DNA of 64,000 nt from Escherichia coli (GTDB taxonomy: Bacteria > Pseudomonadota > Gammaproteobacteria > Enterobacterales > Enterobacteriaceae). Positions 4,817 to 10,508 of the stretch are shown piece by piece. The notes beneath the pieces are model-generated. The model saw nothing but the letters and a program-made list of their open reading frames with translations, did no database searches and was not told where the DNA came from. Within the stretch, counting starts at the first letter, position 1; each line of letters opens with the position of its first letter. The stretch is from the NCBI RefSeq assembly GCF_024223415.1, contig NZ_CP100503.1, one strand, 5' to 3'. Made by a program: the position numbers and the translations under genes.

Positions 4817-5062
4817 TTGGCAGAACGTGTTGATGATGCAGAGCTGAGCATGAATCAGTTAGAAGCTCTCAAAGACATGGCCATCGATAACATCAGAAAG
4901 CAGGCACAGGTCGTGAGCCAGGTATTTACAGGGAAGTGTCGTTACTGCAATGAATCGATTGAATCAGGCATTTATTGTGACGCTGAATGTGCGCAATGGC
5001 ACAGGGAAGAGCAGGCCGCAAAACAGCGTAAATATGGCATGCGACCGGCAGGATTTGACTGA
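4817..5062 (+). CDS. Small Cys-rich (zinc-ribbon-like) protein, 81 aa
   Basis: ORF with CRYC...CDAEC motif; first gene of plus-strand cluster. Confidence 0.4.
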   Translation: MAERVDDAELSMNQLEALKDMAIDNIRKQAQVVSQVFTGKCRYCNESIESGIYCDAECAQWHREEQAAKQRKYGMRPAGFD

Positions 5063-5064
5063 TT

Positions 5065-5643
5065 GTGTTGCGCTTTACTGAGGAAGAGTTTCAGGCTTTT
5101 AGTGAGCGTCGAAATAAGGGGCGGCCCAGGCCAAAAACCAAAAAGGATCCATTCTTATCGCTTGCGCCGGTAAAAGAAGTTTCTCCACATGCGAAGGCAC
5201 TTGCAGCACTTGCAAAGAACCCAGACCTGCGCGACGGAAATTGCGAGCACTTCGAGCAGGTTTTCATTTTTGATTACTTCGAACGCAAGCACCCTGACAT
5301 CTATGAGCTGTTGCATGCAACGCCTAACGGAGGGAAACGTTCAAAAGCAACCGCCGGGAAAATGAAGGCTGAAGGGCAGAAAAAAGGTTATCCGGACATG
5401 AGTCTCGATAAAGCATGCGGTATTTATCACGGCATGCGAATTGAGCTTAAAGAACCAAATGGTAAAGCCCCGACGAAAGAGCAGATCGCCTGGATGCGCA
5501 GGCTTAGAGAGGAAGGTTACTACGTCGTTCTTGCGTATGGTGCAGAACAAGCGATAACCGCCATCCTGGAATACATAAGCCTTAAAAAGGGTGAGGCTAT
5601 TGAGCATGTATTGAACGGCGACAAGTGGTTGTATGCTGCTTAA
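5065..5643 (+). CDS. VRR-NUC-like nuclease-domain protein (192 aa)
   Basis: C-terminal region KKGYPDM...IELKEPNGK...YYVVLAYGAEQA fits a PD-(D/E)xK / VRR-NUC pattern. Confidence 0.5.
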   Translation: MLRFTEEEFQAFSERRNKGRPRPKTKKDPFLSLAPVKEVSPHAKALAALAKNPDLRDGNCEHFEQVFIFDYFERKHPDIYELLHATPNGGKRSKATAGKMKAEGQKKGYPDMSLDKACGIYHGMRIELKEPNGKAPTKEQIAWMRRLREEGYYVVLAYGAEQAITAILEYISLKKGEAIEHVLNGDKWLYAA

Positions 5644-5806
5644 AATAATAAATTAATTAGTACATATGCGCCATTTGATATAGCGCACATTAACATCGGG
5701 AGAATAGTCGTGTCATCCAAGGCTAATTATGAATCGCTGGCATCGATCATGCCGCGTAATGAACAGGAAACAGATGCTGTAGTGGACCCTGTAATCGCTG
5801 AAATGA

Positions 5807-6469
5807 ATGCTCGCCTGGAGGCTGAATTTGCAGCTGAGAATGAACATACCACCCAGGGCGACTAGGACTGTTTTTTGTGTCGGTAGCGGTCCGTCACTCA
5901 CTCGTGAGGACTGTGCTGCTATAGAAAAAACTGGCTGTTCAATCATCGCGGTTAACAATTCCTGGCAGATGTTCGATGACATTTATGCCTTATACGCCGG
6001 TGATTTGTCATGGTGGAAGCAATACGGATCCACCATACCGGGAGGGAGATTCCGCAAAGTGACAGCCAACCTGGCGGCGGCGAAATCATTTTCGTTGGAG
6101 TACAGGCGATATTGTGGACCGGCGGAAGGGGTAAATAGCGGCGCGCAGGCTATCAGTCTGGCTGCTGAATCAGGGGCTGAAGTAGTGGTATTAGTCGGCT
6201 ATGACTGTTCTCTGCAAAACGGCCTTCATTGGCATGGCGCGCACCCTCAAGCCCTACGGAATCCAACGCAGGTTTCTATTTCAAAATGGCAACAGCAGTT
6301 CCTGGATACCCGCAAAAAACACGCAGATTTACATATTTTGAATGCAAGTAGGAGCAGTGCAATTCAATGTTTCCCAAGAATAAATTTAGAGGCAGTGATC
6401 GCGTTATTATCGTCGGCAGTGGCCCAAGCGCCGCAAACTTTGTTGCGCCGCGCGGAGTGCCGATTATAG
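5807..6469 (+). CDS. Rossmann-like protein with VGSGPS...IAVN...VLVGYD motifs (paralog A); start and C-terminal end uncertain
   Basis: ORF; shares motif order with next gene; possibly DUF115/MptE-like (low confidence). 3' end overlaps paralog B by about 100 nt in another frame. Confidence 0.4.
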   Translation: MLAWRLNLQLRMNIPPRATRTVFCVGSGPSLTREDCAAIEKTGCSIIAVNNSWQMFDDIYALYAGDLSWWKQYGSTIPGGRFRKVTANLAAAKSFSLEYRRYCGPAEGVNSGAQAISLAAESGAEVVVLVGYDCSLQNGLHWHGAHPQALRNPTQVSISKWQQQFLDTRKKHADLHILNASRSSAIQCFPRINLEAVIALLSSAVAQAPQTLLRRAECRL

Positions 6470-6993
6470 CGGTCAATGGGGCCATCGACTGGCTGAACCG
6501 CGCTTCTTATTTTTTCACACTTGATCCATCGCCAGACAATATGCGGCGCGTTGGTCGTGGCCGCCGTCGCCGTGGTGTTTGTTATTGCATGGCACTACCC
6601 GATGTTAAAGAACGTGAAGTCAGAGACGGCGTTCTGTGCTTCCGTCGTGTGGCTGAACGTGGCATGGAGCCAAAAAATACGAATTCTCCCGAGTGGTGGG
6701 CGTGGCGCTGGTCCGCACATTTCGGACTTTGCGAAGATGAGAATGAAATTGCCAGCGGCAATAGTGCATATGGTGCTCTGAACCTGGCTTTCCATATCGG
6801 ATTCAAACATGTCGCCCTGGTGGGCGTTGACGCTACACAAGAACCACGCGTTCACTCCGGCGGCACGCCAAAAAATCTAAGTCACCTGCCTTTGTTATTC
6901 CAGTCTGCGCGTGAACGGATTGACGTTGTTTCATGCGGGAAAATGGGAGGTATTCCGCAGATGACTCTTAAAGAATGGCTGAAGAATACATGA
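6367..6993 (+). CDS. Rossmann-like protein with VGSGPS...IAVN...ALVGVD motifs (paralog B)
   Basis: ORF; tandem paralog of preceding gene with the same motif order. Confidence 0.45.
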
Positions 6994-8383: not shown

Positions 8384-8391
8384 ATATTTTT

Positions 8392-8419
8392 AAAACGTGA
8401 TGTACACTCATCACGTTTT
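8392..8419. terminator. Hairpin AAAACGTGATG-loop-CATCACGTTTT flanked by A-run and T-run (bidirectional terminator candidate)
   Basis: 11-bp perfect stem, 6-nt loop, T-run after; lies just downstream of 7664..8365. Confidence 0.55.
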
Positions 8420-8666
8420 TTATTAGAGCAATCCAAAAGGTGCACTATGTGGCCATTCCGACGGAAATATCACTACTGGCTGATCGCCTTTGTTACGCCG
8501 ACCGGCGGTATCAGGCATGTCATCACCAAGTATCGCAACAAGAGACTCACCTTAGCCAGAATTTTACAGGCTGCCATAGGTGAGGGACTGGATACAAATT
8601 GCGTAGTCCTTCCTCCTTCATACTTAGGAAAAATGACCGAAGCACAAGCTAATACGGAACTTTGAA

Positions 8667-9929
8667 ATGAGCACTTCAGCACAAAACCAATCAATCGAAA
8701 ATGTATCTATCCCTGATGTCCTGAATGCCGGTATCCCGGCCATTATCCAGAACATCCGGGCCGCGCAACGCCGCGTTAGTTGTGATGACCTCACAGCACG
8801 TTTTTTTGATAATGCGGTTCAGTCAGCGGAGATGCTTCACGCACAGCTTATTGATGTTTATAACGCAGAAGCTGATAGCCATAACTCCCTGGTAGATGCA
8901 GCTGAAAATATGCAGTTGGATCTCGGTCTGAAGGGTAAAGAAATTGAAGAGCTTCAGCTGCAAATTGAACATTTGAAACGCCAGCAACAGGACGCGATCG
9001 ACGATGCGACGCATGACGCCAACCAGCGTGCTGATAATGCCGAACGTATAAGCATTGAGCTGGAAACAAAACTCAATGAAATGACCGCGATGGTTGAACT
9101 GCGGAACTCACAGATTTCAACGCTAAAATCTCAATATAAAGAGATCATGAAACTTGATCCTTTTAACCTTGAGAAACGCTATAACAAAGCTAAAAGCGAG
9201 CGACAGGAACTGCGTAAGCAGGTCGCCGACCTTAACCAACAGCTCAAAAAAACTATTAAAGATGCAAGCGAAGCGCGCGTGGCATTTGCTAATAAAAAAG
9301 CAGAGGTTACCGCGCTGGTTAATGAGAATGCCAAATTTGCGACGCTCAAGAAGGAAATGTATGGCATTACTGAGCGCCGTTTCCCTGCAAGCAAACGTCA
9401 TCCGACGTTAGGGCAAATCTCCTTCTTCCCGCGCCTCCTGGCTTATGGGATCTCATCGCCTAAAGAGTTCAATAACGAGCGTCCTTATATCGTTTCTAAG
9501 CTGGACTTTGCTTATCAGTTCTGCTGCGACATGGGCTATGCCATTGATATCCGGATCAACGAATGGTTGATGCCAAACTTCCAGCCGTTGGCCATTTTCC
9601 GCGAGTTCCAGCCGGAAGGTTGGGTAGAGTTCTTCCATGAATTGATCTGTAAAGCGATGGAAAGCCGCCGCCCGGAACTGGTCCGTCGAGTTGAGTGGGC
9701 GCAAGAGGTTATGTTGGCAGAGGCAGAGCTGCCGTTCGAACCGGAATTTATTGATGATCTGGCAACTAAAGGGCTGCATACCCTGTTTGATGTGGTTACC
9801 CGCCGTCATGAGCAGTTGGTTGTCGAATTGGGTTTAGAGGAAACTGCGGCAAGAAGACTTCTCGATGTTTGCTATGCACGTAGCGATGCATGGGAAAAAG
9901 AGAACGGCGGCACTATTTACGTTCGCTGA
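8667..9929 (+). CDS. Hypothetical protein (420 aa) with coiled-coil N-terminal half
   Basis: ORF; heptad-like E/K/Q/L-rich region aa 60-200. Confidence 0.45.
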   Translation: MSTSAQNQSIENVSIPDVLNAGIPAIIQNIRAAQRRVSCDDLTARFFDNAVQSAEMLHAQLIDVYNAEADSHNSLVDAAENMQLDLGLKGKEIEELQLQIEHLKRQQQDAIDDATHDANQRADNAERISIELETKLNEMTAMVELRNSQISTLKSQYKEIMKLDPFNLEKRYNKAKSERQELRKQVADLNQQLKKTIKDASEARVAFANKKAEVTALVNENAKFATLKKEMYGITERRFPASKRHPTLGQISFFPRLLAYGISSPKEFNNERPYIVSKLDFAYQFCCDMGYAIDIRINEWLMPNFQPLAIFREFQPEGWVEFFHELICKAMESRRPELVRRVEWAQEVMLAEAELPFEPEFIDDLATKGLHTLFDVVTRRHEQLVVELGLEETAARRLLDVCYARSDAWEKENGGTIYVR

Positions 9930-10001
9930 TAGTTACTGTGTCACTTTTAATGCTGGTGGAGTGCGCCCACCAGCATTTTTTTCGTCCAATGAGGAGGGCA
10001 T

Positions 10002-10508
10002 TTGAGTATTTTCAATAAACACGCACACCAGGAACGTCCGTACATCGTCATAGTAGATATTGATGGGACGATATCAGAGGCAACGGAAGACAGGCTGCAT
10101 TTACTTCCACCATCTGGCAAAGGTGCATTAACAGAGCACTGGAACGAGTTTAACCTTGCCTGTGACACTGATGCTCCCATCACTCCAGTTATTGATATGG
10201 TGCGCCAGTTGTCCAGCATTTACACGCTCTGGTTTGTAACCGGGCGCTGTGAGATAGCCAGGGATAAAACACGAGCCTGGTTGCGTAAGCACGTAACAAA
10301 TGGGGCTGAGCCTTTGCTATCTATGCGTCCTGCCACCGATGACAGAAATGACGGCCCTGCAAAGATTGATCTCCTGAAGAAAATTGGTCTAAGTAAAATT
10401 GCGTTCGCGCTGGAAGATAAGATTGAAGTGGCGCGTGTTTTCAGGAGTCACGGCGTACTTACGTTAATGGTCAGGGAATATGAAAATGCGCTTCTTCATC
10501 AACAATAA
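10002..10508 (+). CDS. HAD-superfamily phosphatase-like protein (168 aa)
   Basis: Motif I VDIDGT, motif II LWFVTGR, later K...ED; resembles phage polynucleotide-kinase-phosphatase / acid-phosphatase (pap-like) domains. Confidence 0.5.
   Translation: MSIFNKHAHQERPYIVIVDIDGTISEATEDRLHLLPPSGKGALTEHWNEFNLACDTDAPITPVIDMVRQLSSIYTLWFVTGRCEIARDKTRAWLRKHVTNGAEPLLSMRPATDDRNDGPAKIDLLKKIGLSKIAFALEDKIEVARVFRSHGVLTLMVREYENALLHQQ

Follow-up and report, generated by a model that had tools for sequence, protein, structure and literature searches.

The stretch from position 4,817 to 10,508 of an Escherichia coli DNA window (contig NZ_CP100503.1; the window is the whole 64-kb stretch that was analysed) belongs to a P1-type plasmid prophage and makes up its pmgL-pap block, which was already known as sequence. 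The block is a mosaic, neither a single pathway nor a single operon, and its conserved centre, pmgO-pmgP-pmgQ, is a portable cassette in which a GT8-type enzyme is combined with two enzymes whose fold is Maf/sialyltransferase-like. We show here for the first time that genes of the PmgO/PmgP type and genes of the PmgQ type form a linked, sometimes fused, mobile pair, which usually lies in head operons. Tentatively, we read this centre as a glycosylation module of lytic growth, which would use CMP-Kdo (cytidine monophosphate-activated 3-deoxy-D-manno-oct-2-ulosonic acid) and a uridine diphosphate (UDP)-sugar, and would act most likely on a virion protein.

By megablast, window positions 4817-10508 are 98.4% identical at the nucleotide level to phage P1 78602-84293 (pmgL to pap), with 100% coverage. 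The listing of open reading frames (ORFs) gives a tight plus-strand run from 4817 to 10508, in agreement with an earlier reading of the window made from its sequence and ORF list (the sequence-only reading), which had described co-oriented plus-strand genes here. That reading counted eight genes; these eight exist, but the block has ten, as pmgN and pmgR were missed. The P1 annotation names the ten as pmgL, pmgM, pmgN, pmgO, pmgP, ppp, pmgQ, pmgR, pmgS and pap. All ten ORFs are intact in the window, with 95-100% protein identity to their P1 counterparts. The block was found in 759 of 5426 complete E. coli genomes, where it is plasmid-borne at 803 of 820 places, and it also matches 21 phage records (megablast).

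The genes pmgO (5807-6469, plus strand) and pmgP (6367-6993, plus strand) encode predicted members of the MptE-like/Maf/GT42 sialyltransferase-like superfamily, pmgP being a distant paralogue of pmgO, and the two proteins share the fold of that superfamily. PmgO matches PHROG 4603 'alpha-2,3-sialyltransferase' (E 4e-74), and the Pfam family MptE-like (PF01973) scores 23.4 bits for PmgO and 21.0 bits for PmgP, both below the cut-off of 34.6. When the two are compared by BLASTP the N-terminal motif alone aligns (E 0.003). The sequence-only reading had seen tandem paralogues with a GSGPS motif; the motif and the sub-threshold MptE-like matches bear this out, although the paralogy is only distant. 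The closest structural relative of PmgP is Maf, a protein glycosyltransferase. Residue H173 of PmgP is invariant. The fold alone leaves transfer of a CMP-sugar and transfer of a pyrophosphoryl group undecided, and the constant partnership with a GT8-type gene favours sugar transfer. A search of the literature on DUF115 in phages brought up nothing relevant. In at least one RefSeq plasmid record (locus L003 13153-13653) the Prokaryotic Genome Annotation Pipeline (PGAP) calls PmgO from an internal start, equivalent to window position 5969, which gives a protein of 166 amino acids. PmgO then loses its conserved GSGPS motif (residues 26-30), and a start at the P1 position or at the methionine at 5840 is more plausible.

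The third cassette gene, pmgQ (7664-8365, plus strand), encodes what is, on its AlphaFold2 model (pLDDT 94.5), a GT8-like retaining GT-A glycosyltransferase of predicted activity. Its top Foldseek matches in the Protein Data Bank (PDB) are all GT8-type, namely Gat1 (6mw5, E 8.7e-9) followed by glycogenin, LgtC, GlyE and xyloside xylosyltransferase, with E values from 8.7e-9 to about 1e-6, template modelling (TM) scores of about 0.5-0.6 and identities of 10-17%. Invariant among 33 homologues are D79-L-D81, which is the DXD motif that the sequence-only reading had picked out, as well as G148-D149, H208-G209, P211 and P213; a C-terminal F-H-G-x-P-R-P motif is conserved. At the sequence level PmgQ matches no Pfam family at E <= 0.1 and its best PDB match is again 6mw5 (E 0.086); sequence-only PDB searches with PmgO, PmgQ, PmgL and the P1 protein Dbn (see below) gave nothing usable. 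PmgQ homologues make up 41 clusters among 5.8 billion proteins, and the family is small and phage-restricted.

Distant relatives of PmgQ (35-48% identical) occur outside P1-like elements, in HK97-type siphophage contigs and prophages. The typical order there is terminase, portal, protease, capsid, a PmgO- or PmgP-like gene, a PmgQ-like gene, a head-tail connector or head-closure protein, and tail. The homology of the neighbours was confirmed by phmmer, and PmgQ homologues adjoin homologues of PmgP or PmgO in nine of the 12 contexts examined by hand. When IMG/VR was scanned with the PmgQ alignment, there were 569 hits, and 45 non-P1 loci were obtained. An MptE-like gene lies within 3 kb and on the same strand as the PmgQ-like gene in 32 of these, and is directly adjacent in 19. 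A recognisable head module surrounds the cassette at 28 or more of the 45 loci, a lower bound, because many of the contigs are short and only six phages supplied the proteins whose relatives served as markers. The median distance from the end of the capsid gene to the start of PmgQ is 831 bp, or one gene, in the 17 loci with a recognised upstream capsid gene.

The pair can also be joined in a single protein. At locus L082 a PmgO-like domain (hidden Markov model (HMM) E 5e-10) is fused to a PmgQ-like domain (HMM E 4e-67), and at loci L079, L091 and L093 PmgQ appears fused to a weakly MptE-like C-terminal domain (weak Pfam match only). On these domain matches the fusion is firm for L082 and the three others are probable. 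The fusion proteins of all four loci, which are IMG/VR contigs, are 416-434 amino acids long and have the domains in both orders. Placement is not uniform, since three prophages, Citrobacter phage phiNP among them, have the pair between lysis and terminase genes. The hosts of the homologues seen are all Gram-negative, and the P7 annotation already likens HdmB, its name for PmgO, to orf7 of Pseudomonas phage D3.

Additional genes accompany some cassettes. One has a cupin and a methyltransferase, and several encode an extra small protein of about 190 amino acids that resembles nucleotide-sugar transferases (L011 9254-9835, L008 6864-7430, L009 8636-9232). One of these small proteins has a weak match to Pfam Nucleotid_trans, two share homology (E 1e-40), and P1 lacks a counterpart of any of them. 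The chromosome of Candidatus Pantoea floridensis (loci L005/L006 8001-8633) has an orphan PmgQ homologue (49% identical), flanked by the pyruvate dehydrogenase genes and acnB and away from any phage genes.

Divergent P1-like elements give an indication of the sugar donor. A 96-kb Pantoea P1-like plasmid keeps the order pmgL-M-O-P-Q-R-S and is without ppp and pap; downstream of its pmgS lies a gene with a score of 254 bits for the curated kdsB (CMP-Kdo synthetase) model, whose cut-off is 155. The same arrangement recurs in a much more divergent element (PmgS 26% identical), where the gene is a CTP_transf_3 (cytidylyltransferase) homologue of the Pantoea kdsB (E 2e-51), and a cytidylyltransferase gene is part of the block in three P1-like contigs of IMG/VR as well. 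Thus kdsB accompanies the block in four or more divergent elements that are without ppp and pap, and this is an indirect pointer to a CMP-activated ulosonic acid as donor for PmgO and PmgP. Sialyltransferase-fold and Maf enzymes use donors of this class. At only about 47% identity to the chromosomal gene of E. coli, the phage kdsB is not a recent capture. A kdsB match on a 99.7-kb Pseudomonas plasmid was discarded, as it sits in a capsule locus unrelated to the block.

A further P1 gene may belong to the same set. P1 dbn (72659-73657) maps just upstream of window position 1 and has no match within the window. It encodes a GT-B-type 'Glycos_transf_1' protein with a sub-threshold score. In the E. 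coli phages EP_H11 and IME392 the PmgQ homologue is overlapped by the gene directly before it, a Dbn homologue (E 1e-96; locus L017 4033-5621), and a PmgO homologue lies about 1 kb upstream. This arrangement suggests that dbn belongs functionally with pmgO, pmgP and pmgQ, and the set of transferases in P1 may therefore number four.

If the centre of the block is a glycosylation module, the cassette would build a short glycan from host nucleotide sugars during lytic growth, with PmgO and PmgP transferring Kdo from CMP-Kdo, PmgQ transferring a hexose from a UDP-sugar, and Dbn probably working together with them. CMP-Kdo is the proposed donor because it is, to our knowledge, the only CMP-activated ulosonic acid made by K-12-type hosts, and because the divergent relatives of P1 bring a kdsB of their own; genes for sugar synthesis are not found with the cassette. 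The acceptor would be a virion head protein, which is the weakest step. It is proposed because the cassette lies directly behind the major capsid gene in the head operon of unrelated phages, and because Maf is a protein glycosyltransferase and glycosylation of mycobacteriophage capsids provides a precedent. For mycobacteriophages, phage-encoded glycosylation of capsid proteins is reported by Freeman et al. 2023, as cited in PMC11256854. A search for a possible acceptor signature, in the form of Ser/Thr-rich C-terminal extensions on the capsid proteins of cassette-bearing phages, turned up short G/S tails of no distinctive appearance. It is conceivable, although we consider it doubtful, that in P1 and many HK97-type phages of Gram-negative hosts a short Kdo-containing glycan is attached to a head protein by a Maf-like and GT8-like pair encoded directly behind the capsid gene.

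Several observations weigh against glycosylation of the virion. We know of no protein glycosylation with Kdo to date. The P1 virion proteome paper and two P1 cryo-electron microscopy papers make no mention of glycans or of unexplained density, and single deletions of pmgO, pmgP, pmgQ and dbn have no plaque phenotype (PMC9024508). In P1 the pmgN-pmgQ unit is annotated with a C1-controlled sigma-70 promoter, an arrangement of early type, and not only with a late promoter. The GT8 family also includes transferases of the lipopolysaccharide (LPS) core (bioRxiv 10.1101/2023.12.21.572611). Phage Chlobot has a lone PmgQ homologue at a moron-type site between int and tail-fibre genes, and this and the orphan homologue of the Pantoea chromosome fit a role at the host surface better. 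The count of head modules was, moreover, built on markers from six phages only.

The main rival, which we regard as rather unlikely, is that PmgO, PmgP and PmgQ (with Dbn) modify an envelope glycolipid of the host, most plausibly the LPS core, which is the receptor of P1. Phage would then no longer adsorb to infected or lysing cells or to their debris, leading to superinfection exclusion or protection of the progeny. GT8 includes LgtC, which is among the top structural matches of PmgQ, and also WaaJ and WaaO, two transferases of the E. coli LPS core (bioRxiv 10.1101/2023.12.21.572611). Kdo is moreover an LPS sugar for which divergent relatives carry kdsB, the hosts seen are all Gram-negative, the Chlobot gene beside int and tail-fibre genes occupies a conversion-type site, and the lysis/terminase junction at which three prophages have the cassette is a common moron site. 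Most cassettes, however, are placed tightly inside head operons, between capsid and head-completion genes and with overlapping start and stop codons, which is unlike autonomous lysogen conversion genes. C1 represses these genes in the P1 lysogen, the closest structural relative of PmgP glycosylates protein, and P1 deletion mutants plate normally (PMC9024508).

Less probable still is that the genes share no function and are accessory genes acquired independently, PmgO and PmgP being, for example, pyrophosphokinases of the MptE/thiamin-pyrophosphokinase type that act on a small molecule. The linkage of an MptE-like gene to a GT8 gene in 32 of 45 loci, and their fusion in at least one protein, argue against this and for a joint role in sugar transfer, as do the conservation of the order pmgL-M-O-P-Q-R-S even where PmgS is only 26% identical and the repeated association of the block with kdsB, a gene for the synthesis of a CMP-sugar donor.

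Gonzales et al. made an in-frame deletion of every gene of the block, and all mutants but that of pmgR plated normally (PMC9024508). Deletion of block genes other than pmgR also left anti-restriction unchanged, in tests limited to EcoK, EcoA and EcoB (PMC9024508). The sequence-only reading had proposed anti-defence or DNA modification as the typical role of such a mixture of genes, and suggested deletion with plating on restricting hosts as a check. For type I restriction the published single-gene deletions give a negative answer (PMC9024508), and both proposals are left without support; its mention of protein modification may hold for the transferase-like genes. An anti-defence module, with host defence proteins, signalling nucleotides or damaged ends of nucleic acids as the targets of the nuclease, the phosphatases and the transferases, is in our view improbable. 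The phosphatases Ppp and Pap might, for example, heal 2',3'-cyclic or 3'-phosphate ends of RNA. In favour of this, Ppp has weak similarity to a PHROG family with the name 'RNA ligase' and to the bacterial Pnkp phosphoesterase domain, Pap is a member of the PNKP phosphatase family, the block adjoins a type I restriction-modification locus in the window, and the experiments covered type I systems only. Nevertheless, anti-restriction is unchanged in single deletions (PMC9024508) and no kinase or ligase partner is present. The divergent P1-like elements are without ppp and pap, so both lie outside the conserved core, and the neighbouring hsd locus is a lineage-specific replacement that is absent from P1.

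P1 DNA is cut by ordinary restriction enzymes and is not known to carry modified bases other than methylated ones. Sugar hypermodification of phage DNA by the transferases, comparable to hexose, heptose or Kdo on 5-hydroxymethylcytosine (5hmC), is very improbable: some phage transferases reported to put Kdo and other LPS sugars on 5hmC are GT8-like and some are co-encoded with HAD-like and cytidylyltransferase genes (bioRxiv 10.1101/2023.12.21.572611), and the block also has a nuclease (PmgM) and a helix-hairpin-helix protein (PmgS), but an enzyme that makes 5hmC or 5-hydroxymethyluracil is required and none is annotated in or beside the cassette in the P1 stretch or the head-module cassettes examined (annotations only, with no systematic search of the whole of P1), the head-operon location is unexpected for DNA-modification genes, and deletions leave restriction sensitivity unchanged (PMC9024508).

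Beyond the proposed glycosylation genes, the block has two phosphatases. Ppp and Pap are, by their profile matches, real phosphatases of known families and are accessories specific to the P1 lineage. The gene ppp (6975-7667, plus strand) encodes a predicted lambda-type Ser/Thr phosphatase (PPP/metallophosphoesterase). By comparison it is an orthologue of lambda phosphatase, which it matches (PDB 1g5b, E 1.5e-94) with GDLHG, GDLIDRG and GNHE visible in the alignment, and it also matches Pfam Metallophos (59.3 bits, cut-off 21.5). It has ATGA stop/start overlaps at both ends in P1. The junction between the PmgP- and PmgQ-type genes is without ppp in all non-P1 cassettes and in the divergent P1-like elements, and ppp is therefore an insertion between pmgP and pmgQ specific to the P1 lineage. 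The gene pap (10002-10508, plus strand) encodes a predicted stand-alone HAD phosphatase of the PNKP 3'-phosphatase type, with matches to Pfam HAD_PNKP (PF25109; 45.3 bits, cut-off 27.6) and PHROG 415 (E 4e-56) and a DxDGT nucleophile motif (DIDGT, residues 19-23). As the 168 amino acids hold the phosphatase domain only and the 5'-kinase (P-loop) domain is not present, Pap is not a polynucleotide kinase, despite its name in some records. A KdsC-type Kdo-8-phosphate phosphatase was considered for Pap because divergent relatives without pap carry kdsB downstream of pmgS. It was rejected, since Pfam places Pap in the PNKP phosphatase family and NCBIfam gives no match.

The first genes of the block encode a candidate zinc-finger factor and a candidate nuclease. 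PmgL (4817-5062, plus strand; 81 amino acids) is 100% identical to its P1 counterpart and has four cysteines. It may be a TraR/DksA-like factor, although the profile support is limited: it matches PHROG 54 'DksA-like zinc-finger' (E 1.6e-12), and it has no Pfam DksA/TraR match (its only Pfam match being VATC, E 0.009) and none in NCBIfam or the PDB. In divergent P1-like elements, too, the block starts with this gene. PmgM (5065-5643, plus strand) is a predicted VRR-NUC (PD-(D/E)XK) nuclease. It matches the solved VRR-NUC structure 4qbl (E 3.5e-17) and PHROG 5702 'Holliday junction resolvase' (E 8e-27), its score against Pfam VRR_NUC is just under the cut-off (21.2 against 23.8 bits), and its PD-(D/E)XK motif reads ...YPDMSLD...RIELKEP.... 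Judged from its family, PmgM is probably a branch or junction resolvase. PmgN (5710-5865, plus strand; 51 amino acids) overlaps the annotated start of pmgO and matches PHROG 2350 (E 1.2e-37).

Of the genes that follow pmgQ, pmgR (8447-8665, plus strand; 72 amino acids), which is in the ORF listing, has been shown experimentally to encode a head-completion factor: its deletion leads to unjoined heads and tails, and it is essential for head completion (PMC9024508). It is kept between pmgQ and pmgS in divergent P1-like elements. PmgS (8667-9929, plus strand; 420 amino acids) has a predicted long coiled coil and a C-terminal helix-hairpin-helix domain. Pfam HHH_5 is matched by 12 of 30 family members and RNA_pol_A_CTD by eight of 30, and the family profile matches the RAD51 N-terminal domain (E 6e-7). 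The PmgS family is nearly confined to P1-like elements, where it always comes after pmgR. The sequence-only reading thus had the domain classes right for PmgL (zinc ribbon), PmgM (VRR-NUC-like), Ppp (PPP family), PmgS, which has coiled-coil matches, and Pap (HAD-like). It set the cluster apart from morphogenesis, and this stands in so far as single deletions bar pmgR plaque normally; it fails for pmgR, which is essential for head completion, and pmgO, pmgP and pmgQ are tied to head modules elsewhere. A CRISPR interference (CRISPRi) screen agrees with the deletions, except that pmgN was essential and pmgR was not (PMC10695390). The two genes are thus reversed between the methods, pmgN being dispensable and pmgR essential by deletion (PMC9024508). 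This conflict could come from polarity on the overlapping pmgO start, or from weak knock-down of a small gene.

The block is regulated by the repressor C1. A search of the 64-kb window with the operator consensus, allowing up to three mismatches, gave 15 matches compared with 0.2 expected by chance, which fits a P1-type immunity network spread across the element. Four operators of the block that are annotated in P1 were recovered in this way, at 4743, 8367, 8416 and 10508. O26 (Op82; 4743-4759, minus strand; two mismatches) lies between gene 26 and pmgL, in their divergent promoter region. OpmgRa (Op86a; 8367-8383, plus strand) and OpmgRb (Op86b; 8416-8432, minus strand) precede pmgR, and OpmgT (Op88; 10508-10524, plus strand; one mismatch) marks the end of the block. 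A fifth, degenerate site before pmgN, Oppp (Op83; 5650-5666, minus strand), was placed by transfer from the P1 annotation. Its sequence, TATGTACTAATTAATTT, has five mismatches to the consensus, which is why the search with its limit of three missed it, and the surrounding intergenic region is 56/66 identical to P1. The late promoter LPpmgL (4710-4728, plus strand) was likewise transferred from P1 (78495-78513), and the intergenic region upstream of pmgL in which it lies (4671-4816) is 145/146 identical to P1. The P1 annotation places the sigma-70 promoter of the pmgN-pmgQ unit under C1 control. With operators upstream of pmgL, before pmgN, twice before pmgR and once after pap, the block therefore forms three C1-repressed units in the lysogen.

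Downstream of pap the window departs from P1. A type I restriction-modification locus on the minus strand (10761-16796) directly follows pap and replaces the segment from pmgT to humD that P1 has there; it consists of hsdR (10761-13877), hsdS (13999-15237) and hsdM (15234-16796), all on the minus strand. Beyond it, at 17194-24688, lie phd/doc, pdcB, lpa, pacA, pacB and c1. The P1 record notes the homology of these flanks to sequences around the EcoDXXI and R124 hsd loci.

E. coli genetics has relied on P1 for seventy years, yet the genes of this block have borne placeholder names since its genome was annotated. The region itself is known; what is new is a cassette hypothesis for three or four long-unexplained P1 genes and a widespread two-gene cassette in head operons. 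If virion glycosylation is true, a model phage and a wide range of prophages of enterobacteria, Pseudomonas and alphaproteobacteria would have a post-translational layer that has gone unnoticed, with relevance to phage stability, immune recognition in therapy and receptor biology. A Kdo glycan on the head would be the first virion glycosylation system in phages of Gram-negative bacteria and the first protein glycosylation with Kdo. If LPS remodelling is true instead, it would be a new route of receptor masking, expressed in lytic growth. The annotation can also be corrected in several places, as the internal start of PmgO should be replaced, Pap is not a kinase, and the labels 'head morphogenesis' and 'sheath' are unsupported.

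Among known systems the closest are P1 and P7, which share the gene content, order and regulatory sites of the block in the window. P7 names the genes upf81.0, upf81.2, hdmA-D, ppp, shtA/B and pap. The labels 'putative morphogenetic', 'head morphogenesis' and 'sheath' used for the two phages have no backing from mutant phenotypes, with the exception of pmgR. PmgO and PmgP resemble Maf and the GT42 sialyltransferases (CstI/CstII), as well as Pfam MptE-like/DUF115, below the Pfam threshold and with no nonulosonic-acid synthesis genes present. Maf (5mu5) has 632 amino acids compared with about 200 for PmgO and PmgP, and identity is only 12-21%. PmgQ has the GT-A fold, the DXD motif and the C-terminal H-G-x-P-R-P in common with the GT8 enzymes glycogenin, Gat1, GlyE, LgtC and WaaJ/WaaO, and differs from them in having no Pfam match and TM-scores of only about 0.57.

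Two phage systems can be compared with the cassette as a whole. Clusters for sugar hypermodification of phage DNA use LPS-type sugars including Kdo, and some combine HAD-like, cytidylyltransferase and glycosyltransferase genes (bioRxiv 10.1101/2023.12.21.572611). These clusters are anchored either on a C5-methyltransferase with a 5-methylcytosine dioxygenase or on a hydroxymethylase, whereas the present cassette has no such linked gene in the stretches examined and sits in head operons. The second system is the virion glycosylation of mycobacteriophages (Che8-type, Freeman et al. 2023, as cited in PMC11256854), which has Gram-positive actinobacterial hosts and in which glycosylation was shown by mass spectrometry, whereas here it is only inferred. 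In the related F1 phage Maravista (PMC11256854) the transferase genes are found close to the 3' terminus of the genome and not behind the capsid gene. In the mycobacteriophage system, phage transferases decorate capsid proteins, and it is this system that serves as the functional model for the pmgO-pmgP-pmgQ cassette.

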